A DNA stretch of 64,000 bases from Schmidtea polychroa (GCA_044892525.1 CM097887.1:35526001-35590000); one strand, 5' to 3'. Shown: positions 3,558-40,607, numbered from the stretch's first letter. The notes: generated by a model not told the origin, from the sequence alone. Numbers and translations are program-made.

Positions 3558-3692
3558 CTGATTGGTCCGCACAAATAAGAATTTGATATATATACAACTA
3601 CCAAAAACATTAAATTTACTGTTAACCCCGAGCATTTCATAGGTAAGAAAAATGTTTACTGTTGTTTACTGTTAACCCCGAGCATTTCATAG
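3558..3692 (+). promoter_or_regulatory. Candidate LTR promoter: inverted CCAAT (ctgATTGGt), TATA-like gatatatatac, duplicated 28-bp element and a GTAAG donor-like site
   Basis: ATTGG near 3561; TATATATA near 3586; tttactgttaaccccgagcatttcatag at 3615-3642 and 3665-3692; first copy followed by gtaag (3643). Motif pattern only. Confidence 0.35.
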
Positions 3693-6096: not shown

Positions 6097-6849
6097 ATGT
6101 TATCAAACCACAAATCAGCTCTACGTCCCTGCTTCTCCTGCTCAGATAAAAATGCAGTGATTACAGATCTCCAAGCCCAGATCGGTCGATATAAACGAAA
6201 AATCGACGAGCTGGAAGGGACATGGTTTAGTCCCGCTCGGATGAAGGAGATCCAAAAGAAGCTCGATCGCAGCGAGCATTGCCGGGACGCGCTAATATCT
6301 GAGAGCCGTGCCCAAAGAAGTCTAATCAGAGAACAATCCGAGGCACTGCATAAGGTTTACGTGCAGGCGGCTACAACCCGAAAAATTGTGCAGATTCCCA
6401 TCCGAGAGGCCGATGACATCTTTCCGCCTCATCACAACCTTTCCTCGAATCCATCTCCACCGTTCAAGAGACCGTGCCGAGACTGCGTCGAAACCGAATT
6501 TTCCCCCAAGCGACCAGATGTTGTCGTCACGGGTACCAGTAAGCCCCCCACTGCTAGTCCATCTGTACCTGTCACCCTTCTGCAAGTGGCATCTTCAAGC
6601 AAACCCAAGCGCAAACAACTCTCTCGTGCAGAGCGCAAGAAGAGACAGCGCGAACGCGCCACTACAAAGCCAAACATCCCATCAATAGAGGGTTCAACCA
6701 ACGGTGGTAACTCTCACGTGTCCATCGACCTAACAACGGGACCCTCAGCACGAATCGTATCAGCCGCTGGCGTAACGTGGGAAGAGAACGCTTCCGAGTT
6801 TTTTAACCTCGACGAATTATTCGCCGACGCTGAATGGGAGAAACAATAG
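6097..6849 (+). CDS. LTR-encoded 250-aa protein (coiled coil, basic NLS-like tract, acidic/aromatic C-terminus)
   Basis: Intact in both LTRs; preceded by pyrimidine-rich ttttcttctttAG and followed by AATAAA at 6973; KPKRKQLSRAERKKRQR; ends FFNLDELFADAEWEKQ. Confidence 0.7.
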   Translation: MLSNHKSALRPCFSCSDKNAVITDLQAQIGRYKRKIDELEGTWFSPARMKEIQKKLDRSEHCRDALISESRAQRSLIREQSEALHKVYVQAATTRKIVQIPIREADDIFPPHHNLSSNPSPPFKRPCRDCVETEFSPKRPDVVVTGTSKPPTASPSVPVTLLQVASSSKPKRKQLSRAERKKRQRERATTKPNIPSIEGSTNGGNSHVSIDLTTGPSARIVSAAGVTWEENASEFFNLDELFADAEWEKQ

Positions 6850-7390
6850 AACCCCAGTGGCGGTCAGGATGAAGAACAAGGATCCGATCTATGTTGATTA
6901 TGATGTTTTCTCTTCTTTCGACAAACATTAGTAAAGTGTACAGCTGAATCCTTGTGTCATAACGTTGAAATTAATAAATCTTGTTGTCTTGCACGTTTTC
7001 GTTCATGAATAATTAGACTTTAATTAAGTGGGTTGAGTAGAGAACCCGCCAGATCTAGTGAGAAATTCCCAATTTGTATTCAGCGAATCCTGATAAGTGG
7101 TTGTGTAAGGAAATGGACGTAAGCCCTTCTAACGGCAGTCGTGAATGGGAAGTCGAGGCCTCAGCAAGGAGTAGTTTTAAGGCAGAAGCTCACCTGCTTG
7201 CTGGCGTCTCGCCTGCATAGTGCAGTACCAACGTGAAGTGATTCACGGGCACTATGTTGGAAGAAAGTTATGTGGGGTTTCACTCCAGGTTGACAAATCG
7301 GTGGCACCTTTTATTCGAGATGGACAATCAACCCTTAGACCCGTCAACATGGTAGAGTGGTCAGCCGAGGTGTAACCCCAACATGATTTT

Positions 7391-10855: not shown

Positions 10856-11761
10856 ATGACGAATGTCGTAAAAACCGACGAGTATAAAGAGAAGTTCAGA
10901 GGAGAACCGTTCAACGGAAATGCAAACAAGCTAGCAACGTTCATAACTAATTTTGAAGTTTATATCACTGTGTGTGGATGGACACCCGAAGCAATTAGTA
11001 AAAGGATGCCGTTGTTTTTGTGCGATAGTGCATTAGAGGTATATTTAGAAGCTAAAGAGAGAGACACGAAATTAGAAAAGTGGGAAGATATTAAAACATT
11101 CCTGAAGAAAACCTTCGGAGCCAGTAAGCCAATCAACCAGGCGTTGGGCGAACTAGCAAATAGGAAACAAAGAGCAAACGAATCGATAACATTATATGCC
11201 AGTGAATTGCGGAGATTAGCGAAGAAAGCAATGAATGGAAAATTACCCGAAGAAAATCTGATCGGTTATTTCATAGAGGGATTACGCCGAGAAGAAGTAA
11301 GAGCCTCAGTAGGTTGTCAAATGTGCAAAACATTAGAGGAAGCCATAGATTGGGCTACAAGATGCGAGCTCCACCTTCCAGCTCAAATGAATATTATGCA
11401 AGAGGAGGGAAGGATAGCGACAGCAATAGCGAAAGCGGATAACGGAGATAACAACAATCAAGAACCGAAAATGAATCAATTTATACCAGGAGCGCACCAA
11501 ATTTTCAAACCACCACAAGGACGATCAAACGGGAATAATGGTAATCGTAACAACCCGAATAATGAGAACAATTTCAATAATCGGCGAAATATGAACGATA
11601 ACAAGCAGTGCCGAACATGCGGTAAACCAGGACACTGGGACAGAGATTGTTATAGAAATTCAAATTGTAATCGTTGCGGACGGCGTGGACATACCGAAAA
11701 TGTATGCCAATTGAGAGGCTGTTTTAACTGTGGTCAGCCAGGTCACATCTCCAGAGATTGC
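10856..11761 (+). other. Gag domain: capsid-like region plus three CX2CX4HX4C zinc knuckles (11609-11761)
   Basis: FNGNANKLATFITNFE..WEDIKTFLKKTF..QRANESITLYASELRRLA; CRTCGKPGHWDRDC, CNRCGRRGHTENVC, CFNCGQPGHISRDC. Confidence 0.9.
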
Positions 11762-14700
11762 CGAGAAAGGGGCCAACAACAACGACCACCACAGCGAAAT
11801 AATAATTATATAGCGAATCCGCAACGACAAAGTAACCCTAACGAAGGAAAACAAATGAACGTTATGCAGGAAATTTCGCAGATGAAACAGATGATGCAAC
11901 AAATGATGAGACCAAGACAAGAATCAGCACCACAACAAACCCAGAATATACGTATGATGAGGAGTACCGAAAATCTCAACAATTATGAAGTGCATCAACA
12001 TGTACAAGAATGGCAAAGGCTACAGGCCGAGGAAGAGAGGATAAAACAAGAACGCAACCAACAACGACAAGAACAACCATTGCGAATAAATATGATGAAG
12101 TTAGTAAAAGACATGAAGAGCCAGTATTGCTACAATTACGGGAAAAGCCCAAGGGTAGTACCCATGACTGAACCAGAAAAAGTAAAGGAAATAACAACGG
12201 AAATGAAAACAGAGAATTCAACCACGATTTCAAAAGGAAACCAGAGAATTCAGAAAATATTCTGGAAAAAGATAAAGGATAAAATCGAAAAAGAACATAA
12301 TAAAGCGAAAACTGAGACAGAAGATGAAAATAACAAGAGCGAGGAACAAACCAGTCAACTAAATCACCAAATGCTACAAGAATCAGAATCAGAAGAAACA
12401 ACAATATTCGAAAGAAAGAAACTAAAGAGAGTACCAAGGATGAGAAACTTGCAAATCAATATGATGAAAAGGACAAAAGATGTAGCATCGTCAGACGAAG
12501 AAGAAGATTATGTAAGTAGTTTGGGTGGAGAAATACTACAGCCGAATGAAATAAGCGAACCCTCAAAAGGGGAAATCAAAGAGGAAGAAAGCGGAAACGA
12601 GATAACCAGCGAAAGTGAAGACGAAGATATCGAAATAAAGTTGAGAAAAGCAAGGGAGGAAGCGATAAAACAGGTAGCCGAAATACTCCCAGTAGTAGTG
12701 AGGAACCAAGAGTTCATCGACGTAATACCATTCAGGCGATTCGTGCAAAAAGTGATGAAATTGGAAAGAAACGAGAAAGACCTAATACCAAACGAGGAAA
12801 AATCAATTATAAAAAATTATATGGAAAAAATGAAGCAGGCCGATACCACGCGGTATGTAATAAAAATTGGAACGAGTAGAGGACTTGAAAGAATGTGGAT
12901 AAAAAATACAGTCACCGACGAACTTTTCGATTGGATACGAGAACATTTGGGAAGTTCGAGAAAGAAAGAATATCTGTATCAATACCAAGGAGAACAGATC
13001 AAACCAGATATGCACTTAGTAGATGCACTAATATGGCCAGGAGAAACGCAAATACTGAAGTTGCATAAAGAAAAACAACCAGCCAACCTTTACGACTGGG
13101 CTAAAGATGCCAAGGCAGAATATGATTTTAATATCAAATTGAAATTAGAACAAATAAAACAATGTACTCTGAGACGAAACCTGGATAAGCTGATCAAACA
13201 AATTCAAGAACAAGTAGAAGACAACTGGGATTTACTCATCACCAGACGAGCCCCAGCCATGTACGAACTAATGAGCCGGTTGCGAGATACAGAAATGCTC
13301 CGAATGAGTGATTGGAGAACCATAAATTTGATCCACAAATATGGAAGGTTAAAAGAAACCCAGCCACAGAGGTTGGAAATAACCATATGGTTACCGAACG
13401 AAGAAAAACGACGAATAAAAATGAGCAATCAGAGTACAGTGGATGACTTGGTATCAAAAATAAACCAAGAGATAACGGAAAAGGTACGTAGCGAAAGTAG
13501 TGATGGTATGGTGGATGATGTAGTCATGATGTACGATAAGATAATATTACGAGCGGAGGACGACACCTCGTTAAGCGAAATGGGTATGTGGGACAATCAT
13601 CAGATAATCAGGATAGTACCAATGGATGAATTCCGAACAAGAGATGTAACATATCAAAAAGAAATACGAGACCGGATGAAAACGTTGTATCAAAAATCTA
13701 CAGAAATAATTGAAATCCACCAACAATGGTTAAAAGAAAAAGAGCTACAAGGAAAAATCACGAAATTAAATACCAGATCCTGCAGACGAACCCCATGGGA
13801 AAGAGTGTGGAATGCAGAAAATAAGGAATGGGAAATCCGGAAAGGAATCTTCGTAGAAACAGACATTGGTGAGACAGAAAGTGAATCGGAGGAAGAAGAA
13901 GAGGAACCTCCAGAATATGAAGAGGAAGCAAGGGAACAGACATCAGATGACGAAAGCGAGACGGATGTCACATCAGAAAGCGAAAATGAAGCGAGACATA
14001 TTCATGCAATGAGGAAAAAGGAACGTGAATATGCTGATATGGACGGCGAGGAAGCGACGGAAGCAAGAGAACGAGAAGAGAAAGAAAGATATAAACAATT
14101 AGGCGATATCTTAGCAATGGGAGCGAAAAATCAAAAACGCCAAGTAGTAGCGTTGGCTAACATCATCTTAAAGACATCAGAGAATATCCACAATCTGAGA
14201 GGAATGGCAAAGGCAATAGAGGAATACCGGCAATATAATGAATGGTATCCAGAACAGCTAGAACAAATTATTCGAAAATGGAGAAATCAGGAATGGGCAC
14301 AAGACACTCAGGAGAGGTATCACATCCGAATCAAGTATCCGGACAAGAGCATCGAGGAACTAGAGGTGCATCCAACAACAAAGATTAGAGAATTAAAAAA
14401 GAAATTAGCATATGAAACTCCATTCCATCTGCAACTGTTCGGAAAATCACTAGACGATAATGCAGACGTCGGGATAACACCCATGAGATTGGAAGAGACA
14501 AATGTGTTAACAATGGCAGAAACGTTGGGAAAACCGTTAAAAAGGAAAAGTAAAATTATTAAACCAACAAAAGGCAGTTTGAGTACTCCAAGTCCGAACA
14601 AAGCACCAAGTAAATCTAATGAAACTGAAGAAGTTGAAGAGATAATCCTGGAAGATAGTGACGATGAACCAGGAGAAAGATCACCGCTATTAGTGAGATG

Positions 14701-17700
14701 GCCGACAGGAGCCGAAATGTGGACTAATAACCAGCCATCAACGAGTTATCAACAACCAACGAAACTGAACATCAAAGAAATCATCGACAACACTACGGAA
14801 ACCGAAACGGATGAACAATTCCAGAAGCAAAGAGAACCAACGAAAGTAACACCAGAAAGTCAAACCGACAAAATAATAGACGAATGGAATGAGTGGCTAA
14901 GAAATAACGATAGCTCATTACCCAGAACGGATAACGAAAGAAATCCGAATTACGAAAATACCAGAGAAGCCGGAACGATGATGGAAAAACGGGCAAAAGG
15001 AAGACCGAAGAAACAAGGAGAAAAGTCTGAGTTCAAAACCAAAGAACAATTAAAGCAAGAACAAGGGCAAGTTCGATTAGAAAAATTGGATAAAATAGTA
15101 TGGGATCTAAAGGAAGCCCAACCAACGATCGAAAGAGGAGAAAAATGGATACGAGAATTGTTAAAAGATATGTTAATAATAACAAACCCACAACTTAGAC
15201 GTTTGTGGCAACGGAAAGTAGCCAGTACGGAAGCTAGACAATTATGGCACACCATTTCGGGGATAATCCCAAGGTTAATCAAAGAGAAAACGAAAACCAC
15301 CAAAACGGATTGGGATGAAACAAAGAGAGTGATTGAGCAGCTCACGACAAATGCAAACGATGACGAACATCACCTAGTGGTAATCACGTATTTGATGTAT
15401 AATTTGATGGGACTAGCTGCGAGGAAAATACCAAATAAACAGTTTGCAAATCATGTGGAAATGACCGTTTCAATCATAGAGAATACTATTGAACCACATA
15501 TCATTCGTGCAGGAGGATGGAAAAGACTGATACAAGCGCCACGGAAAAATGAGCAAGAAAGGTCGATGCAAGTTAGATTGAAAAAACTATTAAATGAACT
15601 AGAATGGGAACTACCAATGAAAGATCCCGCAAGCAGAAAAGCATCAATAAATTCGTTAATGATGACTATGATGATATGGATGTTGTGCACAAGTGGAGCA
15701 ACAGGCTTCACCATCTACGATTGTGATAATATGATAATGAGAGATAAATACTCATTGAGAGACATAGAAGAATGCAGACAAGCCTCACCCAACAAATTGG
15801 ACATCGTGAGAACAAAAGTTACTTACCATGTATATCAAGAATCAGATTTCATCAGAACGCAAGCAAGGGAATGCGTAGTATCAAAAAAGGTACTCGCATA
15901 TTACTGTGGACAATATTCGTATTCGACTCTTATACTACCCGGTCTGGATAAAGAAATCGTATCAATACAACGAGAGGATTGTAAAGAGCTATTTAGAACC
16001 GGAGCGCTAAAAATGCATAACGGAGTGACAATTCACGGACAAACTGGAATGATTAAAACCGAAAGTGTTTACGTATCCGGAAAAGTAAAATCATCAGATG
16101 GGTCATGTAACGGAGGTACGTATACGATCCGAGGCGAGGTAATATCGGGAGTTGTAGTGATCGAGTCTTACACGGTCGAATTAAAAGAATACGAAGCGCA
16201 ATTTGACGCAAATAATTACCAAATGAAGACCAACCCAGCGTGTAAAGCTACAGAAAACGTATGCAGGACAGGAGTATCAACTATAATCTATGAAGCTAAT
16301 ACCCAAAAATGCCGACTCCAACTGTTAAAAAGTGCTTTGTTCAATGAAGTAAAAGGAGAAATATATGAGAACGAGAACGACGAGGATGGAAACGACAGAG
16401 TGAGAATGCGAAATGGAAAACCAATGCCACCATCTCCCAGAGAAAAGAGACTTTCAACGCAGAAGACACCAACAGCATTAATCACAGACGATCCAGATCT
16501 AGGTATGAGATTTATCAAAGAGAAAGAAACCACCAAATGTGACAGTATAGTATATAAAACCAATTACGCAGGTATCTACATGTCGAGACAAATAATCGAT
16601 AGAGCAGTGGGAAAGATAGCAACGGAGGACGTAAAACTATACTTATATGCAAATAATAAAATGGATTTTCTATTTCATCGTGGACAAACGACCTTGCAAA
16701 AAGTATATTACGATCTGATACAAAACGATTGTTCATTGAATAAAGAAATATTGAAAACAAAGCTAGCTATTGCGATAACGCACCCCGATAACACGATGCC
16801 ATCACTCCCATTACCAGATGGACACTTTGGTAGAATGGTAGGAGAAGTGATGTACACATACCAGTGTACCAAGACGTATGCACGAATGCCAGAAAAATCC
16901 ATACTACCCGAAAAGAGATGTGCAAATGAATTAGAAATTCGTTATAAAGGACAAAATCGATTCGTCCAACCAGTCACTAGAATTATGAATCCAGTGGGTT
17001 TCTACCCAAATCTCTTTAACTGTTCTAATGCATACGGACCTTTATATGAAAGGCCCGATGGGAAATGGATGATGTTACCGGGAAAAACCATATCCGAGGA
17101 GCCCAAGAAATTTGGATTAATAGAACTCGCCACAGAGCTGGATTTCAAACCTATAGACGTGTCAAACGGTGGTATGTATTCCCCAGAAGATCTAGAAACA
17201 GCACGACTTAACGTACTCTTCCCAGCCAGACGAGAATCCATTTTGTCTAATATGGTTACAATAACTGGGGGCACAAATTATCAATCAGGCCCGAATTACG
17301 AGCTGCTATTATCGCCAGACCATTTTCAACAAGCTACGTCAAACATGATGAAAGCAATGTGGGGAAGATTCTTAGTTTTTGGACAAATGATGGCCGGGAT
17401 ATTAGGGATCATACTCATAATTCAGATAGTCAGAGTAATACTAACACAAATGTTAGCTTGTTTCGATATATACAAGCGGGAAAAGAAAGTTAACTGGAAA
17501 ATGATAGTAGGCTTCCTACCATTTTTAGCTAAAACCATGGTATTACATGGTCACTCAAAAGACATTCATCGGATAAAGCGATTGATAAAAATATTAACAA
17601 AGATTAAAGGAACCGACGAAGAAGTAGGCAGACGATTCCGGAAAGTAATGTACGATGAAGCAACAAGACGACAATTGAAAAAGAATAAGCCAAAATTCTT

Positions 17701-20700
17701 GGACCGATTTAGAAGCCAATCATCTAACAGCGATAGTGACGACGATGATAACGGGAACGATAAATGTCTTTACCCAAACAGAAACCCAAACGAAAAACCA
17801 ATGGAAACGGCACCATATTGGGAAAAGGAAAAGACAAACACCTGGATCGCCAATGGAAGCTATATACCACCGGATATCGTGGGACCACAAGCAGCTTTGA
17901 CCATGACCCAAAATATGTATCCGCAATTACCGAGTCAACCCGGTATGCATTATATGCCAACACGACGTACCAAAAGTGTAGATCAAGCAGATGACGTAAG
18001 AACAATCGCAGCAATGAGTTTACCTGGAGGTCCAGCAGTAACAGTTATGATTCAAATCAATGGTAAAGAAACCAATGCTATGATAGACACCGGAGCTAAT
18101 GTATCAGCAATAGCGATTAATCAAATTCCCAGTAAACACTGGAAAGATATCGAATCAACAACAATTCACATCATAGCATGTAGTAAAGAAACAGTGGACG
18201 TGGTCGGAAGATGGTGGACTACATTGAGATACCAGGACAACGAAATTGAAACGTATTTGGCAGTAATACCAAAACTTAGCGTACCATGCATAATCGGAAC
18301 GGATTTGATGCCAGAATTGTTAAAAGAAGTCGTAATTGACTTAACAACCATGTGTTTAAAAGACAAAACCGGTAGAATATGCAAAATGAATGCAGTCATC
18401 AGATGTCCAGAAAAAATAATAGTACCAGCAAAATCGCAGATGATTTGTCAGATAAAAGTGGATACGGGTATGGAAGGAGAAGTTATCTTTGAACCAAGCA
18501 AGTCATTCGAAAAGCGACGAGAATTACCACTCGCAAGAGAAATAATCACAATAAACCAAGAAGGAGTGATACCGCTCAACATCACGAATTTCGAAGAGGA
18601 AGACAAAATCATTTATGAGAACGAAAAATTGGGAAGATTGACCCCAATGATGGACATAGAATTACCGAAAGTGACCAACGAGATGATCAAAGATGATGAA
18701 TTATGGACAATAGATAGTATGTTGTTGACGAATGATGAAAAGAAAAAATTACACCGATTGTTGGTAGAATATAAAGATATATTCGCCATCTCAGACTTAG
18801 ACTTGGGTACATGCGATGTTACCCTACATGCAATACCCCTCATAGATGAAACCCCAATTGCATTAAGACCATACAAGCTAGCAGAAATGCAAAAAGAAAT
18901 AGCCGAAGCAGAAGTACAAAAGATGCTAGACGCAAAAGTAATCGAACCAAGTTGCTCACCCTGGCAATTCCCAGTGGTCATGGTAAAAAAGAAAGATGGC
19001 ACCCAACGATTCTGTATCGATTATCGGAAGTTAAACGCAGTGACCAAGAGAGATACCTATCCATTGCCGGACATCAATGAGATGTTATTGATGTTGCAAG
19101 GGGCAGCATATTTTACTTCTCTAGATCTAAAAAGTGGATACTGGCAGATTAAAGTCAAAGATGAGGACAAAGAGAAAACAGCTTTCACGTTGGGACGAGA
19201 TCTATATCAATTCAGAAAAATGCCATTTGGACTGACTAACGCACCAGCATCATTTCAACGGTGTATGAACTTTGTCACCCATGGAATCAAACAATGTATG
19301 GTATATATTGATGATTTACTAATCTATTCAGCGACATTTGAACAACATCTAGAGGATATCCGAAACGTATTTATTAGATTAAGACAGTGGAAACTCAAAC
19401 TCAAACCATCAAAATGCGATTGGGCAAAGGAAAAAGTCACGTTTTTAGGACACATAGTGTCAGCTAAAGGAAAGGAGCCAGATCCAAGAAACATTGAGAA
19501 AATAAAAACATGTCCAGCACCGAAAACTGTCACCCAAGTGCAGGAATTTCTAGGATTATGCGGATACTATCGCAAATTTATCAAAAATTATGCAGGAATT
19601 GCAAAACCAATCCAGGAATTAGTAAAGAAGGATATTTCGTTCATTTGGGAAAAAGAACAACAACAGGCGTTCGAAACGCTGAGAGATAAACTAATCGAAG
19701 CACCTATCCTCGTACACCCAGATTTTAAGAAGCCATTTCTATTGGCAACGGATGCAAGCGGGTACGCGGCAGGCGCGATTCTGGGACAATTAGACGATGA
19801 GGGAAAAGAGAGAGTAATCGGGTATTACAGTCGAACATTCAAAAAGCACGAAAAGAACTATTCGGTAACAGAACGAGAAGCATTGGCTATAATACAAGCT
19901 ATCAAACACTTCCGATATTTACTATGGGGACATGAGATATGCATAACCACGGATCATCAACCATTAGTGTGGTTAGGGCAACATAAAGAAGCGTCCAGTA
20001 GACTGATGCGATGGGCCATGCAATTGCAAGAATACTCCCCATTTATAAAATTCAAAGCGGGAAGAGCAAATGCCAACGCCGATTGTATGTCAAGATTTAT
20101 TTTCCCAGATTTGGTGGATTCAGAAATGCAACGCATATGCTTAATAGTAGCGGAAGATTTGGATTTCTGTCAATTACGAAAGGACCAACAAGAGGACGCG
20201 GAATTAAAACAAATTATCGATTATGTAAAAACCGGAAAGACAGAGGTATATGCGAAAGACCAAAAATTAAAAGAACATATGGATAAACACCGACACCGAT
20301 ATATTATAGAGAAAGATTGGTTGCTGATAATGGATGGGGAAAAACGATTAATGTGTATACCGGAAAACCGACGAAAAGAGTTACTAACGCAATATCACGA
20401 TGGGAGATTGGGAGGACATATGTCATCGAAAAAGACGTTAGCAAGAATGAAACAGAAATATTTTTGGCCTACGTTAACTGAAGATGTAACTGAATGGGTA
20501 AAAAATTGTCTAACTTGTACAACCAGGAAGAATACTGGATCGAAATGGAAAGCACCTTTAACACCAATGCCAGTACCAATAGAACCAATGACAATGATAT
20601 CCATGGACGTAGTTGGTCCACTACCAGAGTCAGATAAAGGAAACGTTTACATTCTAGTGATCACAGACTTTCTTACGAAATTCCCAGAAGCATTCGCGAT

Positions 20701-23700
20701 GCCAGACCAAAAAGCTAAAACAATCGCAAAAATTTTGGTAGAAGAGATATGTTGCCGATATGGAACACCAAAACAAATCTTAACCGATCAGGGAACTAAT
20801 TTTATGAGTGAGATAATGAGCGAAGTAACAAATTACTTCAAAATAGCAAAACTAAGAACATCTCCATACCACCCTCAAACCAATGGGATGACGGAAAGAT
20901 TTAATGGAACACTTATACAAATGTTATCAAACTACGTTGACCGTCACCAACGAGATTGGGATGAATATATAAACCTATGTCTTATGGCGTACAGAATGTC
21001 GATTCACGCATCAACGAAAATGAGCCCATTCAAATTAATGTACGGAAGAGAATGTAATATGCCAATGGACCTGGAATACCAACCACCGATATCGCAGTAT
21101 ATGGAGATCGATGATTATGTTACGAAATTCAAGGAAAGAATGCAAGAAATTTGGGAAACTGCGGGATTAAATATCAAGTTCTACCAGGAAAGTTATAAAG
21201 ATTTACACGATCGAAAGAAAAACGTGAAGCAACATACGTTCCAAACAGGTGATTGGGTAATGATAGAAACCCCGGAATTAATTCCAGGAACCACAAAAAA
21301 GTTACAACGCAACGGAAAAGGACCATATGAGATCTTATTCGTAGGCGAAACTAATGTAAGAGTGAAATTGGTAAATAACCCCTTTACCAGACCAATATAC
21401 GTAAACGTGGCACGATGCAAATCAATTCCAAAAACAGCCACTAGTCAACCAGAAGGCCGTACATTAACCACACGTTCGCAAACCTACCGAATGAACATGA
21501 TGCAACAACTCGCGGAACCGATCACTGGACGATTAGGTATCCAACCATCAGAAGCGGAAAAGATTGTAAAAGAGGTAAAAATTAGAATACCTGGATGGGC
21601 AAAAGATCGATTAGATTTCGAAATATTAGGAGGATTATTGACGATGATCGAGAACTATGCAAATAGAGAAAGGACACACCCATTATTGCGAGTAGTCAAA
21701 AGCCAATGGCCAATATTATTTACAATAACAGATCATTACGGAGACACACCATTACACAAACTCATGAAAGTAGGTAACAACGAGCAAATACTAGAAACAA
21801 TAGAAGCATTTCACGACTGCAAGCGATCAACAGAACAAACAAACAACCAAGGTTACACACCATTAATGATAGCCGCAAACAGAGGCAAAACCAAAGACAT
21901 TATAACCGCATTACTCGATACCGGATCGAAAATAACTACACAAGACCACGAGCGGAAAAACGCTCTACATCATGCTATCGAAGGGAGAAGTACCGAGGCG
22001 TTCACGTCATTGATGGAACTACTATCATATGAGGACAATCGGGAAGTCGGAAACATGTATGATGGATTATTAACAGCGACCAAAGAAAAACTGACAACAA
22101 TTACCGGAATATTAATTACATGGAGAAATCCAATTCGAAACGATTATATGATCAACGTAAACGAAGCGTTCACGAGAGGAGAGAACACGCTGATGAGAGA
22201 AGCTATGAAAGGACATCATTTATTCGAAATTCCGAATCAATTACTAGAACGAGGGATAAAATTCACAAATCATAAAGACGAACAGTTAGCAAAAAAGCGA
22301 ATCGACACATTCGAAAAATCCCTATTCCAATTTACTAACCAAGTACGAAATAAATATTGGGAAACGGTAAGTGTGTTATATATGATGGACACAATGAATA
22401 ACATCCGCGAGAATTACCTGGATATTATCCAAATACTTACAGCAGAGGAACGAATCAATAATCCAAACGGAAAGAAAACGAAAATAAGGTATGGGAAATC
22501 AAGGGAACCAAAATTGACAACGAACCAAAAGGTCACAAATAACGTCATCGAAACAAAATCAATGAGTATAGATCAGGAGGCAATAATACGCAAAGCGAAA
22601 GAGGTATTCTTTGAGGAAATGCTAGAGCTGCCAGACGACATAATATTGTCCAAAATAATAAAAGCCGTACACACATACGCAAGAGATCAAACCACGGATT
22701 TGGATATCGGGAAAATCAAAACCTTCTTGCCTCGAGCATTTACGATGATAACGAAGGATTCCAGAACACCCCTACAACAAGCAATACTAGCAGCGAAAGA
22801 AAATAGAGCAATAACGATCGTGAGAATCCTTGGAGAGATGGGCGAGGAAACCAACACGAAAAATGAACAAGGTGAAACCGCTATGATGTATGCAGCTATA
22901 ACGAAAATACACCCAAAAACACTCCACATCCTACATCAATCAGGATCGAAACTAGACGAAAAGTCCAATGAAGGAAATTCCACCTTGGACTGGGCAACCA
23001 TACAGCCAAACTTAGAAATGATCAGATTTATTTGCAAAAATGCGACAAAAGAAGAAGTTGAAAATATGTGCAAAAACACATCTCAGTTTCAATGGAATAC
23101 GGTACGGAAAAATCTAGAAGCAATGAAATTATTATTAACCTGGAGAGTACCACAAAATAATAAATATGCGATAAATGTAAACGAATTCTACGAAAACGGA
23201 GAAAATGCGATGGTAAAGAATACCCTAACTAAGGGGGGGACGCCTAAAATTATTTTATTAGTATTAAATAGAGAAGACCTAAAATTCACGCAAAATCAGA
23301 ACGAGCAACAACGAATTGGGAAACATCGTCGTATGCAATTGAGAGAGTTAGTTAAAGAATGGAATAGAAAGAGACATGCTGCAACGGGTAGAAAAGAGTT
23401 TGAATTCGAAGCAAAATTAGCAAGAAACAGAGTGCTAACAGCATATCGCAGATTATTGAACGATATAAATGTCGAGGACGACATTTTAAACGACAGCGGG
23501 GGAGATAAACACGATGACAATAACGGAAAAGGCCGAAAGGAGGATAAAGAGAAAAGAGAACCGGAGGAGGGTAAACCGGAAAACAAGGATTCGGATACGA
23601 AAAGAGAGGGAAACAGCCCGGGAACTAAGACCAAAGAGGAGGAAAAATCGAATAATGGAAAACAGAGGGTATGCCTACCTTTCACTAACAAAGAAATAGA

Positions 23701-24709
23701 GACAAATATGATATTAATGATAATTATGCTTACCATGATAGAGTTAGTAACAGCTCATGGAGGGACGAGGACGATAAAAGAAACCAAAGAAGCGGAGAAT
23801 CAAGATAGCAAAGAGGACGAACTAAAACAAGAAAAGAAAAAGCAAGCACAAGAGCAGCAGTGGGATTTAAAGGAAGAATGGGACTTAAAGGAAAGGTGCA
23901 TACTAGGAAGATGCATGTCTAGAGCGTATCAGAAACTAGTACTGATAAATGAGGACACAGAACCAATAACAGAAGTAAGAATACAAGAAGCATACCGAAA
24001 CCGAGACGGGAAAAGAATAACGAACGTTAAAGGAAAAGAGGTACACCTAGGAAAAGGTGGCGAAGTAGTAATAACGCAGCTCCAACCAAGAAAAGAGCAC
24101 AAAGTCTGTATTTCAAGATTAGGACCGGGTGAGAGATGCCATCAATATGTGACGCAGCAGCAGCCCCCGAAGGAATATACGGTTTGTATCTGGAGAAACG
24201 AATCAAAAAGAGAATGCCGACGATACCCGGGGAAAAGAGGAAAGAAAAGGAAAAACCACGACGAAAAGGACGAAGGAGGAAAGCACAAGAAAACTGGTGA
24301 GGAAGCTCAGGACAACTATGTTTCGGAGGAAGAGATGGAAAAAATACAAAAGATGGCAAAGGAGGGTATGAACGAGGAAATAGCAAGAATACGGGAAATG
24401 ATGAAAGGAAATGGCAAAAGAGGAAACGAGAAAAGTACAGAAGCGATATCAACATTAACAAACAAGGAAAAACCAGAGAGTATAAGCGTGAAGCAGATGA
24501 TGTGGATCAGTGGGATAATAATAACAGGGGCATTCCTAATCATAACGGGGGGAACAATAAAAATAATTAAAGATAAACGACATCGCGGAGAACTAGAAAT
24601 GACCCGAATCAGAAACTTCCAACATCGAGTGAAACGACCAAGTGATATCAAACAAGGACAGTGGGTGGAGGCCTGGAACGTTCAGCGCCCTCCAAACTCA
24701 CGTATATAG
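10856..24709 (+). CDS. gag-pol: 4,617-aa Gag-accessory-Env-Pol-accessory polyprotein (single ORF)
   Basis: Uninterrupted ORF with capsid MHR-like RKQRANESITLY, 3 CCHC, protease DTG, RT YIDD, RNase H TDAS, and integrase HHCC + DDE + GPY motifs. Confidence 0.97.
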   Translation: MTNVVKTDEYKEKFRGEPFNGNANKLATFITNFEVYITVCGWTPEAISKRMPLFLCDSALEVYLEAKERDTKLEKWEDIKTFLKKTFGASKPINQALGELANRKQRANESITLYASELRRLAKKAMNGKLPEENLIGYFIEGLRREEVRASVGCQMCKTLEEAIDWATRCELHLPAQMNIMQEEGRIATAIAKADNGDNNNQEPKMNQFIPGAHQIFKPPQGRSNGNNGNRNNPNNENNFNNRRNMNDNKQCRTCGKPGHWDRDCYRNSNCNRCGRRGHTENVCQLRGCFNCGQPGHISRDCRERGQQQRPPQRNNNYIANPQRQSNPNEGKQMNVMQEISQMKQMMQQMMRPRQESAPQQTQNIRMMRSTENLNNYEVHQHVQEWQRLQAEEERIKQERNQQRQEQPLRINMMKLVKDMKSQYCYNYGKSPRVVPMTEPEKVKEITTEMKTENSTTISKGNQRIQKIFWKKIKDKIEKEHNKAKTETEDENNKSEEQTSQLNHQMLQESESEETTIFERKKLKRVPRMRNLQINMMKRTKDVASSDEEEDYVSSLGGEILQPNEISEPSKGEIKEEESGNEITSESEDEDIEIKLRKAREEAIKQVAEILPVVVRNQEFIDVIPFRRFVQKVMKLERNEKDLIPNEEKSIIKNYMEKMKQADTTRYVIKIGTSRGLERMWIKNTVTDELFDWIREHLGSSRKKEYLYQYQGEQIKPDMHLVDALIWPGETQILKLHKEKQPANLYDWAKDAKAEYDFNIKLKLEQIKQCTLRRNLDKLIKQIQEQVEDNWDLLITRRAPAMYELMSRLRDTEMLRMSDWRTINLIHKYGRLKETQPQRLEITIWLPNEEKRRIKMSNQSTVDDLVSKINQEITEKVRSESSDGMVDDVVMMYDKIILRAEDDTSLSEMGMWDNHQIIRIVPMDEFRTRDVTYQKEIRDRMKTLYQKSTEIIEIHQQWLKEKELQGKITKLNTRSCRRTPWERVWNAENKEWEIRKGIFVETDIGETESESEEEEEEPPEYEEEAREQTSDDESETDVTSESENEARHIHAMRKKEREYADMDGEEATEAREREEKERYKQLGDILAMGAKNQKRQVVALANIILKTSENIHNLRGMAKAIEEYRQYNEWYPEQLEQIIRKWRNQEWAQDTQERYHIRIKYPDKSIEELEVHPTTKIRELKKKLAYETPFHLQLFGKSLDDNADVGITPMRLEETNVLTMAETLGKPLKRKSKIIKPTKGSLSTPSPNKAPSKSNETEEVEEIILEDSDDEPGERSPLLVRWPTGAEMWTNNQPSTSYQQPTKLNIKEIIDNTTETETDEQFQKQREPTKVTPESQTDKIIDEWNEWLRNNDSSLPRTDNERNPNYENTREAGTMMEKRAKGRPKKQGEKSEFKTKEQLKQEQGQVRLEKLDKIVWDLKEAQPTIERGEKWIRELLKDMLIITNPQLRRLWQRKVASTEARQLWHTISGIIPRLIKEKTKTTKTDWDETKRVIEQLTTNANDDEHHLVVITYLMYNLMGLAARKIPNKQFANHVEMTVSIIENTIEPHIIRAGGWKRLIQAPRKNEQERSMQVRLKKLLNELEWELPMKDPASRKASINSLMMTMMIWMLCTSGATGFTIYDCDNMIMRDKYSLRDIEECRQASPNKLDIVRTKVTYHVYQESDFIRTQARECVVSKKVLAYYCGQYSYSTLILPGLDKEIVSIQREDCKELFRTGALKMHNGVTIHGQTGMIKTESVYVSGKVKSSDGSCNGGTYTIRGEVISGVVVIESYTVELKEYEAQFDANNYQMKTNPACKATENVCRTGVSTIIYEANTQKCRLQLLKSALFNEVKGEIYENENDEDGNDRVRMRNGKPMPPSPREKRLSTQKTPTALITDDPDLGMRFIKEKETTKCDSIVYKTNYAGIYMSRQIIDRAVGKIATEDVKLYLYANNKMDFLFHRGQTTLQKVYYDLIQNDCSLNKEILKTKLAIAITHPDNTMPSLPLPDGHFGRMVGEVMYTYQCTKTYARMPEKSILPEKRCANELEIRYKGQNRFVQPVTRIMNPVGFYPNLFNCSNAYGPLYERPDGKWMMLPGKTISEEPKKFGLIELATELDFKPIDVSNGGMYSPEDLETARLNVLFPARRESILSNMVTITGGTNYQSGPNYELLLSPDHFQQATSNMMKAMWGRFLVFGQMMAGILGIILIIQIVRVILTQMLACFDIYKREKKVNWKMIVGFLPFLAKTMVLHGHSKDIHRIKRLIKILTKIKGTDEEVGRRFRKVMYDEATRRQLKKNKPKFLDRFRSQSSNSDSDDDDNGNDKCLYPNRNPNEKPMETAPYWEKEKTNTWIANGSYIPPDIVGPQAALTMTQNMYPQLPSQPGMHYMPTRRTKSVDQADDVRTIAAMSLPGGPAVTVMIQINGKETNAMIDTGANVSAIAINQIPSKHWKDIESTTIHIIACSKETVDVVGRWWTTLRYQDNEIETYLAVIPKLSVPCIIGTDLMPELLKEVVIDLTTMCLKDKTGRICKMNAVIRCPEKIIVPAKSQMICQIKVDTGMEGEVIFEPSKSFEKRRELPLAREIITINQEGVIPLNITNFEEEDKIIYENEKLGRLTPMMDIELPKVTNEMIKDDELWTIDSMLLTNDEKKKLHRLLVEYKDIFAISDLDLGTCDVTLHAIPLIDETPIALRPYKLAEMQKEIAEAEVQKMLDAKVIEPSCSPWQFPVVMVKKKDGTQRFCIDYRKLNAVTKRDTYPLPDINEMLLMLQGAAYFTSLDLKSGYWQIKVKDEDKEKTAFTLGRDLYQFRKMPFGLTNAPASFQRCMNFVTHGIKQCMVYIDDLLIYSATFEQHLEDIRNVFIRLRQWKLKLKPSKCDWAKEKVTFLGHIVSAKGKEPDPRNIEKIKTCPAPKTVTQVQEFLGLCGYYRKFIKNYAGIAKPIQELVKKDISFIWEKEQQQAFETLRDKLIEAPILVHPDFKKPFLLATDASGYAAGAILGQLDDEGKERVIGYYSRTFKKHEKNYSVTEREALAIIQAIKHFRYLLWGHEICITTDHQPLVWLGQHKEASSRLMRWAMQLQEYSPFIKFKAGRANANADCMSRFIFPDLVDSEMQRICLIVAEDLDFCQLRKDQQEDAELKQIIDYVKTGKTEVYAKDQKLKEHMDKHRHRYIIEKDWLLIMDGEKRLMCIPENRRKELLTQYHDGRLGGHMSSKKTLARMKQKYFWPTLTEDVTEWVKNCLTCTTRKNTGSKWKAPLTPMPVPIEPMTMISMDVVGPLPESDKGNVYILVITDFLTKFPEAFAMPDQKAKTIAKILVEEICCRYGTPKQILTDQGTNFMSEIMSEVTNYFKIAKLRTSPYHPQTNGMTERFNGTLIQMLSNYVDRHQRDWDEYINLCLMAYRMSIHASTKMSPFKLMYGRECNMPMDLEYQPPISQYMEIDDYVTKFKERMQEIWETAGLNIKFYQESYKDLHDRKKNVKQHTFQTGDWVMIETPELIPGTTKKLQRNGKGPYEILFVGETNVRVKLVNNPFTRPIYVNVARCKSIPKTATSQPEGRTLTTRSQTYRMNMMQQLAEPITGRLGIQPSEAEKIVKEVKIRIPGWAKDRLDFEILGGLLTMIENYANRERTHPLLRVVKSQWPILFTITDHYGDTPLHKLMKVGNNEQILETIEAFHDCKRSTEQTNNQGYTPLMIAANRGKTKDIITALLDTGSKITTQDHERKNALHHAIEGRSTEAFTSLMELLSYEDNREVGNMYDGLLTATKEKLTTITGILITWRNPIRNDYMINVNEAFTRGENTLMREAMKGHHLFEIPNQLLERGIKFTNHKDEQLAKKRIDTFEKSLFQFTNQVRNKYWETVSVLYMMDTMNNIRENYLDIIQILTAEERINNPNGKKTKIRYGKSREPKLTTNQKVTNNVIETKSMSIDQEAIIRKAKEVFFEEMLELPDDIILSKIIKAVHTYARDQTTDLDIGKIKTFLPRAFTMITKDSRTPLQQAILAAKENRAITIVRILGEMGEETNTKNEQGETAMMYAAITKIHPKTLHILHQSGSKLDEKSNEGNSTLDWATIQPNLEMIRFICKNATKEEVENMCKNTSQFQWNTVRKNLEAMKLLLTWRVPQNNKYAINVNEFYENGENAMVKNTLTKGGTPKIILLVLNREDLKFTQNQNEQQRIGKHRRMQLRELVKEWNRKRHAATGRKEFEFEAKLARNRVLTAYRRLLNDINVEDDILNDSGGDKHDDNNGKGRKEDKEKREPEEGKPENKDSDTKREGNSPGTKTKEEEKSNNGKQRVCLPFTNKEIETNMILMIIMLTMIELVTAHGGTRTIKETKEAENQDSKEDELKQEKKKQAQEQQWDLKEEWDLKERCILGRCMSRAYQKLVLINEDTEPITEVRIQEAYRNRDGKRITNVKGKEVHLGKGGEVVITQLQPRKEHKVCISRLGPGERCHQYVTQQQPPKEYTVCIWRNESKRECRRYPGKRGKKRKNHDEKDEGGKHKKTGEEAQDNYVSEEEMEKIQKMAKEGMNEEIARIREMMKGNGKRGNEKSTEAISTLTNKEKPESISVKQMMWISGIIITGAFLIITGGTIKIIKDKRHRGELEMTRIRNFQHRVKRPSDIKQGQWVEAWNVQRPPNSRI
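12851..14515 (+). other. Three ubiquitin/SUMO-like beta-grasp domains within the polyprotein (12851-13063, 13370-13618, 14318-14515)
   Basis: The third copy, YHIRIKYPDKSIEELEVHPTTKIRELKKKL..LQLFGKSLDDNAD, parallels ubiquitin [41 protein letters not shown]; the other two share the pattern more weakly. Confidence 0.65.
15077..15540 (+). other. Bcl-2-like helical domain within the polyprotein
   Basis: About 150-aa helical segment ending IEPHIIRAGGWKRLI, matching the BH2 motif (WIxxxGGW); BH1 NWGR is degenerate. Confidence 0.6.
15640..17560 (+). other. Chuvirus (Jingchuvirales)-like envelope glycoprotein within the polyprotein: signal peptide, about 550-aa ectodomain, TM anchor
   Basis: Hydrophobic LMMTMMIWMLCTSGATG then FTIYDC..YSLRDIEEC..C..YCGQYSYS..REDCKELFRTG..DGSCNG..LYLYANNKMDF..YYDLIQNDCSLNKEILKTKLAIA..GEVMYTYQC..GGMYSPEDLE..LFPARRESIL..MWGRFLVFGQMMAGILGIILII. 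This is collinear with chuvirus G motifs (YDC..SLLDVxEC, HCGxxS, FAYVNSKF, CxLExxVL, GEVxxxxxC, SGIYTxxDL, MFPxE, WxxFxxFGxxSAG). Confidence 0.85.
18040..18350 (+). other. Retropepsin aspartic protease domain
   Basis: VMIQINGKETNAMIDTGANVSAI (DTG at 18086) and CIIGTDLM. Confidence 0.93.
18830..20100 (+). other. Reverse transcriptase and RNase H domains (Ty3/gypsy)
   Basis: SPWQFPVVMVKKKDG..RFCIDYRKLN..YPLP..LDLKSGYWQ..MPFGLTNAPASFQR..YIDD (19304); FLLATDASG..EREALA..TDHQPL..ADCMSR. Confidence 0.97.
20330..21420 (+). other. Integrase (HHCC, DDE core, GPY/F module)
   Basis: HDGRLGGH..CLTC; SMDVVGPL; LTDQGTNF; NGMTERFN; GKGPYEIL. Confidence 0.96.
21730..23040 (+). other. Two blocks of ankyrin repeats downstream of integrase (about 21730-22030 and 22760-23040)
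   Basis: GDTPLH, GYTPLMIAA..LLDTGS, KNALHHAI, RTPLQQAI, GETAMMYAA..LHQSGS, GNSTLDWA. Confidence 0.85.
23708..24709 (+). other. C-terminal type I membrane module: signal-like segment, FN3-like ectodomain, TM helix, basic tail
   Basis: MILMIIMLTMIELVTA (23708-23755); VVITQLQPRKEHKVCI resembles FN3 strands E-F (xITGLxPxTxYxVCV); TM MMWISGIIITGAFLIITGGTIKII (24497-24568) then KDKRHR. Confidence 0.6.
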
Positions 24710-29742: not shown

Positions 29743-32700
29743 TGTTGGGCTGAGTCGAAAATTTAATCGTTGAAAAATAGGAAAGTAAGGAAGTAGAACA
29801 TTAAGAAAAATAATAATAAAATAAATAAAATCAGAAATAAAATAGAATAAGATATAAGGAAAATAATAAGTAAGACATAAGAATTAAAACAAAAAATAAA
29901 ATTAAGAAAAGATTAAAATAGAACAAGTTGACAAATAAATAAAGAGGAATTCAAGAAATAATAAGGAAATTAAGGAAATAAATAGAAAAACATATTAAAA
30001 ATAAAGAAAATAAGGAAAAAACAACCTAAAAACAAGAAAATTATATTAAATTAATAGAAATAAGCGGTACTCAACTCTGATTGGTCCGCACAAATAAGAA
30101 TTTGATATATATACAACTACCAAAAACATTAAATTTACTGTTAACCCCGAGCATTTCATAGGTAAGAAAAATGTTTACTGTTGTTTACTGTTAACCCCGA
30201 GCATTTCATAGACATCTACAACTCACGGAGACTTATTTCAAGGATCAGCAATACAAGTAGAGCAACAGTTAATTCGAAAAACTTCACAGCAATTCGAACT
30301 CAGTCACAGCAATCGACATTCGACGAACTATCATCAGACTAATTTGGAACGACTAACGTTAATTTTCCGATTCAGCCTAATTCCATAGTAAGGGATTTTT
30401 ATTTATGATATTGTTTTTCGAAGTTAATAGTAAATATGTATATTTAATGAGCAATTAAACTTTTAAATTTAACCAGACTCTCTTTTCATTTGGTCCTGAA
30501 TAACGATTTTGATAAAGTAAATAATTTAAATGTTTAAAAGTATTTATTGGTAACAGGTGAACTCTTACATAATTTTTATGGATATTTATTTTGAAGTGAT
30601 AGTTTTATGATTTCTAATATTAACGAGAAACGTGGCGTTGAGATACTCCATGTCATGGTGTGAGGTGCCTTCGGGAGCTCAGCCGGTGGACATGGAGTAT
30701 TTCAATCACGCAGCTAGATTGGGCCGAAATGTGAAGGCTTCTTCACGGGTCCAATTGCTGAAGGACTTAAAATCTGTCGGAGTACCGAAATATAGACCGA
30801 AAGGAAACCTTCTGAAATTTTCGAAAATAGGATATGTGCTTCACAGCGACTGAGGGAGTTCTCATATTAACTCTGTATTGTCCAGAGTCGTCTTACAAGA
30901 CATTCATGCCACTTCTGTCTATAAATCCGAACTTACCATGTGGGGGAAAATACCATTAAACATCCATCGCTGGCTTTTCTAACATATCGAGAAGTTGAAA
31001 TTGCATTCGGTAGATTTTTGAAAAAGTAACTCTAATTTAGGTCATCTCTTTCAGATGCGACATTCAAATCCTAGCATATGATGAGGAATTTACAATAAGG
31101 GAAAAATAAAACATAAAACCACAATAATACTGTATTCAATCACATATATTAACAAAATCTGGTAATACCCATTGAATAATTTTCATGCTGTTGCGTCGAA
31201 ATATCCACTACTGAAATATGCTTCATAGAGTCTAGTTGGCTGGTTCGTAGAGATCTTCCATCGTTCAAAAGCATCCAATATTGAGGAAATTACGAGTCGT
31301 AGTAAATAAATCCAACATCATAAGCTCAGATGGGAATCGACACGCGATGTAACATTTGCAGTTCGCTCAGTACGGTTGATAGTTACAGATAAAATTTCCA
31401 TCGAATAGGCACCCATACATACAGACATACTGCTAACATAACTATGAGTAGCGTCATCCGGTCAGAAATATGCATGAGAAACAGCAGAATCATTCCGAAT
31501 GCCTCTCACCGCAGGGAATGCCGCCATGTGTCACCCTCTCTAGGATTCTTAGTGTGTGAGTAGTAATCAGTGGTCCTATTAGATAATGCTGACATGAGAT
31601 GTGACTTCCAGATGACTGACTCTTAAATTTCACTACTGATAAAGGCCATTCGTACCACTAAAAAGATAAGCCAAATAACCAGTAACCGACTACTAAGATA
31701 AGGGACTCTCTAAAGTGCACTCATTAAAGATAATTTTGCTTAAATTAAATATTCTAAATAAAAATCGAAATTGTTGAAGGGGTATTTTAATTAATAATCG
31801 AAAATTCAAACCAAACTTTATAACTAAACCATAGGAAGTTTTACCTAAGTGTTGTAGAGGTTTATCGTAATTCTAATTAGATGTTACAAATAATAGTAGT
31901 AGCCTTCGAGCCAAATTTAAATTAACTAAAGTATCTACAGGAATTTTTGGGTTATAAAATAGCTAGTAATATTGTAGTTAAATTTCTCATATTCCCTGTA
32001 AATGACGTATTGTAATAGAAAACTAAATCCGATAACAAATTATTATGTAATTACAATATTTTTACGATGCTATATTTCTACGACGATATCACCGTATGGT
32101 ATGGATAAGGGGTAATCCTAAAATAGTGACGTATAGTTTATACGAAATTACGAGTCGTTACTTATTCCGCTACTTGAAGTGAGGGTGCAAGTTTTTACTA
32201 GTTGCATTTGGTCCAAAAACCTTATTTTGCATTAGAATAACAACAAATAATCAGCGAAATTTAAACGAAGTGTAGTATAGTGTATTTGTAATGAAATAGG
32301 TTTATTCACTCCGGCATGAACCAATCCGTCAATTGCCGTTATGTGCGATAGATAGAAATCCAACTCGAACGCGACAGACGAAAATTAAAATTTTTACAAA
32401 TAATTTGCATTCGTCAGGGAAGCAATCAGGGCGTTGAGGAATAATTTTTGTAAAGGATACGTAAAATATTAGTAATCAAGGGTGAAGGGAAGGACCCTGT
32501 TTCATCGACTCGTCTTGTTTTCTTCCAGTACTAAGTATCCAATAGCGAATAAACCGTATATCTGATCCGAAATTTTTGGATATAGTCATCATAGTTTTCT
32601 TCTTTAGCCATCCATATGTTATCAAACCACAAATCAGCTCTACGTCCCTGCTTCTCCTGCTCAGATAAAAATGCAGTGATTACAGATCTCCAAGCCCAGA

Positions 32701-33902
32701 TCGGTCGATATAAACGAAAAATCGACGAGCTGGAAGGGACATGGTTTAGTCCCGCTCGGATGAAGGAGATCCAAAAGAAGCTCGATCGCAGCGAGCATTG
32801 CCGGGACGCGCTAATATCTGAGAGCCGTGCCCAAAGAAGTCTAATCAGAGAACAATCCGAGGCACTGCATAAGGTTTACGTGCAGGCGGCTACAACCCGA
32901 AAAATTGTGCAGATTCCCATCCGAGAGGCCGATGACATCTTTCCGCCTCATCACAACCTTTCCTCGAATCCATCTCCACCGTTCAAGAGACCGTGCCGAG
33001 ACTGCGTCGAAACCGAATTTTCCCCCAAGCGACCAGATGTTGTCGTCACGGGTACCAGTAAGCCCCCCACTGCTAGTCCATCTGTACCTGTCACCCTTCT
33101 GCAAGTGGCATCTTCAAGCAAACCCAAGCGCAAACAACTCTCTCGTGCAGAGCGCAAGAAGAGACAGCGCGAACGCGCCACTACAAAGCCAAACATCCCA
33201 TCAATAGAGGGTTCAACCAACGGTGGTAACTCTCACGTGTCCATCGACCTAACAACGGGACCCTCAGCACGAATCGTATCAGCCGCTGGCGTAACGTGGG
33301 AAGAGAACGCTTCCGAGTTTTTTAACCTCGACGAATTATTCGCCGACGCTGAATGGGAGAAACAATAGAACCCCAGTGGCGGTCAGGATGAAGAACAAGG
33401 ATCCGATCTATGTTGATTATGATGTTTTCTCTTCTTTCGACAAACATTAGTAAAGTGTACAGCTGAATCCTTGTGTCATAACGTTGAAATTAATAAATCT
33501 TGTTGTCTTGCACGTTTTCGTTCATGAATAATTAGACTTTAATTAAGTGGGTTGAGTAGAGAACCCGCCAGATCTAGTGAGAAATTCCCAATTTGTATTC
33601 AGCGAATCCTGATAAGTGGTTGTGTAAGGAAATGGACGTAAGCCCTTCTAACGGCAGTCGTGAATGGGAAGTCGAGGCCTCAGCAAGGAGTAGTTTTAAG
33701 GCAGAAGCTCACCTGCTTGCTGGCGTCTCGCCTGCATAGTGCAGTACCAACGTGAAGTGATTCACGGGCACTATGTTGGAAGAAAGTTATGTGGGGTTTC
33801 ACTCCAGGTTGACAAATCGGTGGCACCTTTTATTCGAGATGGACAATCAACCCTTAGACCCGTCAACATGGTAGAGTGGTCAGCCGAGGTGTAACCCCAA
33901 CA
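29743..33902 (+). repeat. 3' LTR (4,160 bp)
   Basis: Direct repeat of 3224-7383; followed by TSD ATAG. Confidence 0.97.
32616..33368 (+). CDS. Second copy of the LTR-encoded 250-aa protein
   Basis: Identical translation to 6097-6849. Confidence 0.7.
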   Translation: MLSNHKSALRPCFSCSDKNAVITDLQAQIGRYKRKIDELEGTWFSPARMKEIQKKLDRSEHCRDALISESRAQRSLIREQSEALHKVYVQAATTRKIVQIPIREADDIFPPHHNLSSNPSPPFKRPCRDCVETEFSPKRPDVVVTGTSKPPTASPSVPVTLLQVASSSKPKRKQLSRAERKKRQRERATTKPNIPSIEGSTNGGNSHVSIDLTTGPSARIVSAAGVTWEENASEFFNLDELFADAEWEKQ

Positions 33903-40500: not shown

Positions 40501-40607
40501 ATAAAGTTTGAAAATTATTGGCTTGAACTATAAACCAAATTAGGAAACAATAATTATTAAAAATGAAGTAAGAATTTTATTTTTAATTAATTTAATTTAT
40601 TGATTAT

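Follow-up and report, generated by a model that had tools for sequence, protein, structure and literature searches.

The giant gypsy-like LTR elements Burro and GYPSM1 of planarians exceed 30 kb and carry one ORF of 4600-5100 aa, in which Gag and CCHC knuckles are accompanied by ubiquitin-like and Bcl-2-like domains, ankyrin repeats and MATH/TRAF cargo; an env in frame between Bcl-2 and the protease of Burro was reported in 2019 (PMC6431247, in part). GAG-ENV-POL errantiviruses with an HSV/gB-type env have been described from nematodes, bryozoans and flatworms, with six planarian elements among them (PMC13524379, in part). The in-frame Gag-Env-Pol layout is already known from these parts of the literature (PMC6431247, PMC13524379), and since it has been published, the surprise of meeting it again is limited. 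The Burro account in section 7 of PMC6431247 makes no mention of signal peptides, of how the protein is threaded through membranes, or of a further membrane protein downstream of the ankyrins. In the main text of PMC13524379 the words "polyprotein", "fibronectin" and "ankyrin" have no occurrences, and the parts of that paper compared here contain neither a second ectodomain nor a topology for Pol. Among belpaoviruses, Atlas virus has a single Gag-Pol-Env polyprotein with internal TMs, predicted host cleavage sites and two glycoproteins (PMC9094657, in part). Our literature search returned no paper on a four-pass topology with Pol between two anchors, although TM segments may be described in other accounts or their supplements; it also found neither a second conserved surface protein after the ankyrins nor the separation of Gag and Pol in print.

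The window, by which we mean the whole 64,000-nucleotide stretch of Schmidtea polychroa DNA analysed, contains a complete Burro-type gypsy element of 30.7 kb (3224-33902), which is a young provirus (Table 1). Like Burro, it is longer than 30 kb, with multi-kb LTRs (here 4160 nt), an in-frame env and one giant ORF that runs from Gag/CCHC to PR-RT-RH-IN and ankyrins. Unlike in the part of the Burro account that covers the ORF (PMC6431247), MATH/TRAF is found here in a downstream accessory ORF (25315-26703), which is TRAF-like and consists of a RING, Cys/His-rich segments, a coiled coil and a MATH domain (E 4e-26). Inspection by eye of 29716-29742, before the 3' LTR, and of 7384-7410 revealed no obvious polypurine tract or primer site; the tRNA type is given as "none" for the six planarian elements in the relevant part of PMC13524379. 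Three smaller features accompany the coding region: between the 5' LTR and gag, a short ORF encodes a RING finger (7705-8211, E 4e-11); a 74-nt unit is repeated in tandem in the 5' leader (8669-9708); and each LTR contains a 257-codon open frame of no clear family (6076-6849 and 32595-33368).

Table 1. Features of the element and its polyprotein, in nucleotide positions of the window.
Feature	Position	Strand	Basis or remark
5' LTR	3224..7383	+	4160 nt; TG...CA ends; 4-nt target-site duplication ATAG
Single polyprotein ORF	10856..24709	+	4617 aa
N-terminal part, predicted cytosolic	10856..15634	+	Gag, CCHC knuckles, weak ubiquitin-like and Bcl-2-like matches
Internal signal 1	15635..15706	+	h-region 15656-15688; matrix rank 2 in window
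G ectodomain, predicted lumenal	15707..17368	+	PF24664 E 4e-72; chuvirus-like / gB-type (Monjiviricetes-type) fusion glycoprotein
G transmembrane anchor (TM-a)	17387..17443	+	KD19 2.53; weighted Hessa -0.4
Second hydrophobic stretch (stretch b), MIVGFLPFLAKTMVL	17495..17545	+	predicted on the cytosolic membrane surface, not across
YPQL, YPx-hydrophobic motif in G tail	17918..17929	+	sequence
Pol: PR, RT, RNase H, integrase	18044..21055	+	Pfam; predicted cytosolic
Ankyrin-repeat region	21653..23305 (approximate limits)	+	Ank_2 E 2e-20
Internal signal 2	23708..23755	+	matrix rank 1 in window; predicted cut after aa 4300 (V-T-A)
Second ectodomain	23756..24499	+	beta-sandwich core 23888-24166; FN3-like in relatives
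Second transmembrane anchor (TM2)	24500..24559	+	hydrophobicity; K+R richer on C-side in 6/6 lineages
Short basic cytosolic tail	24560..24706	+	sequence
3' LTR	29743..33902	+	99.95% identity with 5' LTR

Pfam places Gag (E 9e-10), zf-CCHC (E 5e-11), G, PR, RT, RH, IN and ANK in this order in the ORF. This agrees with the original prediction, except that the ubiquitin-like and Bcl-2 domains it had also named are represented solely by weak matches in the expected places, both under the cut-off (E 0.0067 and 0.032, respectively). The Bcl-2-like region gave no match to PDB sequences; a GGW motif, which we take to be BH2-like, lies at 15512. PF24664 covers aa 1617-2210 and PR starts at aa 2397, so that env lies in frame between the Bcl-2-like domain and the protease. 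No Pfam match to a dUTPase-like domain was obtained between PR and RT (18302-18601). In the element, a chuvirus/gB-type env precedes a Pol whose domains follow the gypsy order. By eye, its G is nearest to that of Smed_errantivirus_5 and is identical to none of the six planarian elements. As in the GAG-ENV-POL errantiviruses, env precedes Pol, is of class III type, and has an ectodomain bounded by a signal or TM on one side and a TM on the other (PMC13524379, in part). In belpaoviruses, Env is C-terminal and phlebovirus-like (class II), and Gag-Pol forms one cytosolic chain (PMC9094657, in part), whereas the fusogen of the window lies between Gag and Pol. A fusion Env after the integrase, the trait of Belpaoviridae, was not found, as the fusogen precedes PR, and, unlike in belpaoviruses, the two ectodomains flank Pol.

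In order to locate membrane segments, we ran a 13-residue scan over the polyprotein on the Hessa scale. Exactly four segments exceed the threshold (aa 1600, 2180, 4286 and 4551), and the two C-terminal ones fall at 23708 and 24500, within one codon of the positions first proposed (23708 and 24497). The hydrophobic helix at aa 1507-1521 is not counted as spanning the membrane: its weighted Hessa value is +3.2, and it falls within the Bcl-2-like match. The order signal-G-TM-Pol-signal-ectodomain is present in all seven lineages for which the C-terminus of the polyprotein is available, at 27-40% identity to the G of the window, and six of these have a clear last TM.

A signal matrix, trained on the residues before the cut in 70 stand-alone G signals, was applied to 13 sequences, six of them complete polyproteins. 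In five of these six (window, P0001, P0003, P0007 and P0014), signals 1 and 2 take the first two ranks; in the sixth, P0155, which has a third signal, they are among the top three. The expected signal is ranked first in 6/7 partial sequences, signal 1 of P0005 being third. By themselves, the scores of the window signals (10.3 and 9.3) are not above what 100 shuffles can produce (mean of the best scores 8.5, maximum 13.3), and it is register and conservation between lineages that carry the case. The positive-inside rule is followed at 14/24 flanks overall, a weak tendency, with TM2 obeying it in 6/6 lineages and TM-a in 1/6. N-glycosylation sequons number 3.3 per 1000 aa in G, 4.8 in Pol and 8.4 in ectodomain 2, without enrichment in G, and sequon depletion was not seen in the tails of stand-alone G proteins. 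The original prediction had the chain pass from a cytosolic N-terminus through signal 1, lumenal G, a TM, cytosolic Pol and ankyrins, signal 2, a second lumenal domain and a TM into a cytosolic tail. The comparison between lineages supports this path well; the positive-inside rule and sequon density add little or nothing. We consider it quite probable that the four segments, in their conserved order, make four ER crossings. In P0155, an extra signal and an extra TM, which enclose some 15 lumenal residues, lie between G and RT (aa 2094-2142); as the extra segments are even in number, parity is kept and Pol would be on the same side.

The glycoprotein G has 1057 relatives at E<=0.001, and these indicate how signal 1 is to be read. 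A [YF]DC motif occurs within the first 120 residues of 84/96 relatives of stand-alone size, and in 76 of these 84 it lies at most 40 residues from the start, behind a classical N-terminal signal peptide. By eye, the h-region is in the register of these stand-alone signals in all 17 polyproteins compared, 13 of which pass the hydrophobicity threshold at this site (P0002, P0011, P0015 and P0017 fail). The cut is predicted after aa 1617 if placed by register or after aa 1615 if placed by the matrix, and the residues before the predicted mature start of G in the window are A-T-G. GGW precedes the [YF]DC motif by 48-82 residues in 8/17 polyproteins, a spacing at which the remnant of the cut signal could anchor the Bcl-2-like domain; since the other nine lack GGW, signal 1 is independent of the Bcl-2-like cargo. 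Such an arrangement resembles HCV core-E1, where the capsid protein ends in the signal of the envelope protein (PMC5402940, in part).

The topology could be right and signal 1 nevertheless be an uncleaved signal-anchor, in which case Gag, G and Pol would stay one chain until the protease acts, and Pol would be packaged via Gag. Two kinds of border are reported for gB-type ectodomains, a signal peptide with a TM in one kind and a pair of TMs in the other (PMC13524379, in part), and HCV buds without the core-E1 cut (PMC5402940, in part), so that cutting at signal 1 could also be late. We give this reading little credence, as the small residues at -3/-1 of signal 1 are positioned just as they are in the signals of stand-alone G proteins, and the h-region is short for a stable anchor (about 11 residues; KD19 1.15).

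The G ectodomain is under purifying selection, with a dN/dS of 0.05 against an 88%-identical subfamily copy, a comparison in which synonymous sites are near saturation. An REKR, presumably a furin-type site, is located in a loop of this ectodomain (16439-16450), and in one relative (P0142) immunoglobulin domains precede the PF24664 glycoprotein.

Whether Pol is cytosolic depends on the part of G that follows its anchor. TM-a has a KD19 of at least 1.6 in 22/22 polyproteins. Stretch b, found in the window at aa 2216-2230, is a family-wide feature that stand-alone G proteins also possess. Its KD19 of 1.31 and weighted Hessa value of +4.1 place it well under the four segments, and it is worse than the protein's own TM-a in 22/22 polyproteins and in 92/96 G proteins of stand-alone size. 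The original prediction had named a non-spanning stretch b as the critical requirement for a cytosolic Pol, and the sequence comparisons bear this out: stretch b reaches a KD19 of 1.6 in 0/22 polyproteins and 3/96 stand-alone-size G proteins, and its core contains a central Pro in 21/22 and K/R in 20/22 polyproteins, which include close relatives and are therefore not 22 independent tests. D/E is found in the core in 41/96 G proteins of stand-alone size.

A reading in which stretch b does cross the membrane would have G end in a helical hairpin and Pol enter the lumen, so that functional Pol would need another route. It could draw on a 15-residue Kyte-Doolittle scan, where stretch b (1.93) comes next after TM-a and the two C-terminal segments, on the strong conservation of the stretch (TM-a and stretch b together are 98.6% identical in the subfamily copy), and on the lack of a positive-inside bias at TM-a in 5/6 lineages. 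The hydrophobicity counts and core residues given above argue against it, as does the window itself, where no further TM occurs before PR in an element that is multiplying, and KREKK in the linker before stretch b excludes a three-pass reading. We regard a spanning stretch b as highly improbable; it looks as though the stretch stays on the cytosolic side.

The tail that follows points the same way. Downstream of stretch b, the window has a YPQL, which we take to be an ALIX-type late domain or a tyrosine sorting signal. YPx-hydrophobic motifs follow stretch b in 11/22 polyproteins (shuffles: mean 1.9, maximum 6) and occur, often as LYPxL, in the tails of 49/96 stand-alone-size G proteins (mean 4.3, maximum 10). 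As the motif was spotted in the first 45 stand-alone-size G proteins listed, the other 51 were held out, and 25 of these contain it (mean 2.5, maximum 9). Its density per 1000 residues is 7.4 in tails versus 0.26 in ectodomains. Both ALIX late domains and tyrosine sorting signals work in the cytosol, which fits a non-spanning stretch b, and the motif appears to be conserved in the predicted cytosolic tails of chuvirus-like G proteins generally. A literature search on a YPx-hydrophobic tail motif in chuvirus-like G proteins found no paper.

The C-terminal pair of segments encloses a second candidate surface protein. Signal 2 follows the integrase in 7/7 lineages with a C-terminus; it is 60% identical in the subfamily copy, and the changes in its h-region replace hydrophobic residues by hydrophobic ones. 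The final TM is clear and followed by a short tail in 6/7 lineages (that of P0001 is under the threshold and was seen by eye, and P0014 is without a clear one). The ectodomain between them is likewise under purifying selection, with a dN/dS of 0.05-0.06 against the subfamily copy (0.05 for the core).

The fold of this ectodomain was approached by several searches. The domain of the window has no match in Pfam, PDB or Atlas, and its core, used as a query, found a homologue in 0/25 candidates; a profile search recovered only P0157, which is closely related to P0155, besides a phosphatase at E 0.57. Against PDB sequences, three single queries were blank and a two-sequence profile gave chance-level matches only. 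A profile of 10 ectodomain-2 segments, in turn, has 16 PDB matches at E<=10 (best E 0.0022), all presumably FN3-bearing proteins, and is supportive without being independent, because an FN3-like motif guided the choice of segments. For the 3334-aa family, the top Atlas matches are fn3 (0.92, with a low recognition score). Leave-one-out profiles place their best match correctly for the five other aligned lineages, with a clear score for P0003 only, and miss the window. A structural model of the window domain has low confidence (pLDDT 56; 47.5, which is poor, for single-sequence AlphaFold) and forms an Ig-like beta-sandwich, whose best VIA rows are Ig V-set at Z 8.2 (rmsd 3.2, 84 aligned), slightly ahead of the FN3 rows at Z 6.1-6.2; Foldseek returned no match to it at E<=0.001. 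The FN3-like label given originally is supported for the relatives, by profile and Atlas. It finds no confirmation in the domain of the window, for which the evidence reaches no further than an Ig-like beta-sandwich that is probably derived from FN3.

An L-x-P-x-T-x-Y-like motif is present in 6/7 ectodomains and once in 20,866 aa outside them; it was tuned after the sequences had been seen, and its shuffle control is therefore biased. Four relatives have a Ser/Thr-rich stalk (22-28%), whereas that of the window is charged. Within the window domain, the last Cys-linked hairpin seems, by eye, to be repeated at about 24060-24235 (KEHKVC...C, then KEYTVC...C). Elsewhere in the relatives, P0001, P0003, P0005, P0015 and P0155 contain two or three aspartic-protease-like domains, one of them sometimes after the integrase. 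The second surface protein would most likely serve the fusogen as a partner in attachment or adhesion.

From this arrangement we infer a mechanism of insertion, cleavage, tethering and particle assembly. Translation would begin in the cytosol, signal 1 would open the translocon and G would pass into the lumen until TM-a halts transfer; stretch b would rest on the cytosolic face of the membrane and synthesis of Pol and the ankyrins would proceed in the cytosol, after which signal 2 would restart transfer and TM2 halt it again. Host signal peptidase would likely cut at the two internal signals, which would leave three membrane-bound pieces. The first would be Gag with the possible ubiquitin-like and Bcl-2-like domains, cytosolic and hanging by the remnant of signal 1 in the manner of HCV core. 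The second would be G with the entire Pol-ankyrin chain as its cytosolic tail, tied to the membrane at both ends, through the G anchor and through the remnant of signal 2, and the third a surface protein of type I whose head is Ig/FN3-like. The element's own protease would free the enzymes after assembly, and Pol would reach particles by way of the envelope protein on the membrane and not as a Gag-Pol fusion, the form employed by orthoretroviruses.

In flavi- and alphavirus polyproteins, host signal peptidase acts together with the viral protease, and the replicase is not packaged. The original prediction had called the present layout a flavi/alphavirus strategy and not a retroviral one. As a description of how the polyprotein would work this is fair. 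These are RdRp viruses without homology to the element, in which Pol must enter the particle; the trait of Flaviviridae and Togaviridae, an RdRp and no integrase, was not found, since the window has RT, RNase H, integrase and LTRs. Nor is the contrast with the retroviral strategy unprecedented, because belpaoviruses, which are LTR elements, already show single polyproteins with internal TMs and two glycoproteins (PMC9094657, in part), and Burro is on record with an env in frame (PMC6431247, in part). Foamy viruses resemble the proposed system in packaging Pol otherwise than as a Gag-Pol fusion, and their particle release needs Env; foamy Pol is made from a spliced RNA and recruited via the genome RNA (PMC7828637, in part), whereas here it is the predicted covalent tail of a fusion protein.

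If the topology is true, the usual entry of Pol into the particle as a fusion with Gag is ruled out, because the host cut at signal 1 would part the two while translation is under way. In that case, reverse transcription would be bound up with assembly on a membrane and with the envelope protein, which would argue for replication of these very abundant elements in enveloped particles, with the conserved second surface protein as a candidate attachment factor. We put forward, tentatively, a widespread lineage of enveloped retroelements that may produce a class III fusogen and a fast-evolving FN3/Ig-like attachment protein from one four-pass polyprotein; signal peptidase would sever Gag from Pol, and packaging of Pol as the tail of the fusogen would be a third route beside the Gag-Pol fusion and the foamy RNA route.

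The genomic copies bear on this proposal and on its main competitor. The 150 best genome matches to the N-terminus of G are 90-100% identical, and by hand count 59 of these 150 keep a stop-free frame of 4732 codons, which implies that Pol works in this layout; the same genome has a second G-bearing family with a frame of 3334 codons. It is conceivable that the single ORF is only the genomic form, with spliced or internally started RNAs giving G and the second surface protein N-terminal signals and an env-skipping RNA giving a cytosolic Gag-Pol; such RNAs may coexist with the membrane-threaded polyprotein. Both window signals are Met-rich at their start, and a single ORF implies equal output of Gag and Pol, which is unusual for gypsy elements. 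We nevertheless consider this explanation unlikely. Of 150 matches to the Bcl-2 region, 130 could be paired with a protease match (the 20 unpaired were left out), and none of the 130 pairs lacks env, 128 being spaced 2737-2790 nt and two longer, an indirect test since a spliced RNA need not be packaged. P0001 and P0007 have no Met in the 30 residues before the signal 1 h-region. One copy (L021, G000:C3:113374300-113380600) has lost RT, RNase H, integrase and the first ankyrins in a 3.8-kb in-frame deletion, the only large one examined; it was rejected as a spliced copy, since the deletion has 10-nt microhomology and no splice ends. Joints to four contig sets of unknown or guessed kind have GT..AG ends in 0/15 of those listed and are uninformative on splicing or expression.

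P0007, a full env-pol polyprotein of the present kind, is recorded under a Flavobacteriaceae MAG as a hypothetical protein and is probably animal DNA in a bacterial bin. Outside the element, the window also contains a hAT-family transposase ORF (43300-45609) and a separate pair of 70-nt inverted repeats (35605-35674 and 40515-40584).
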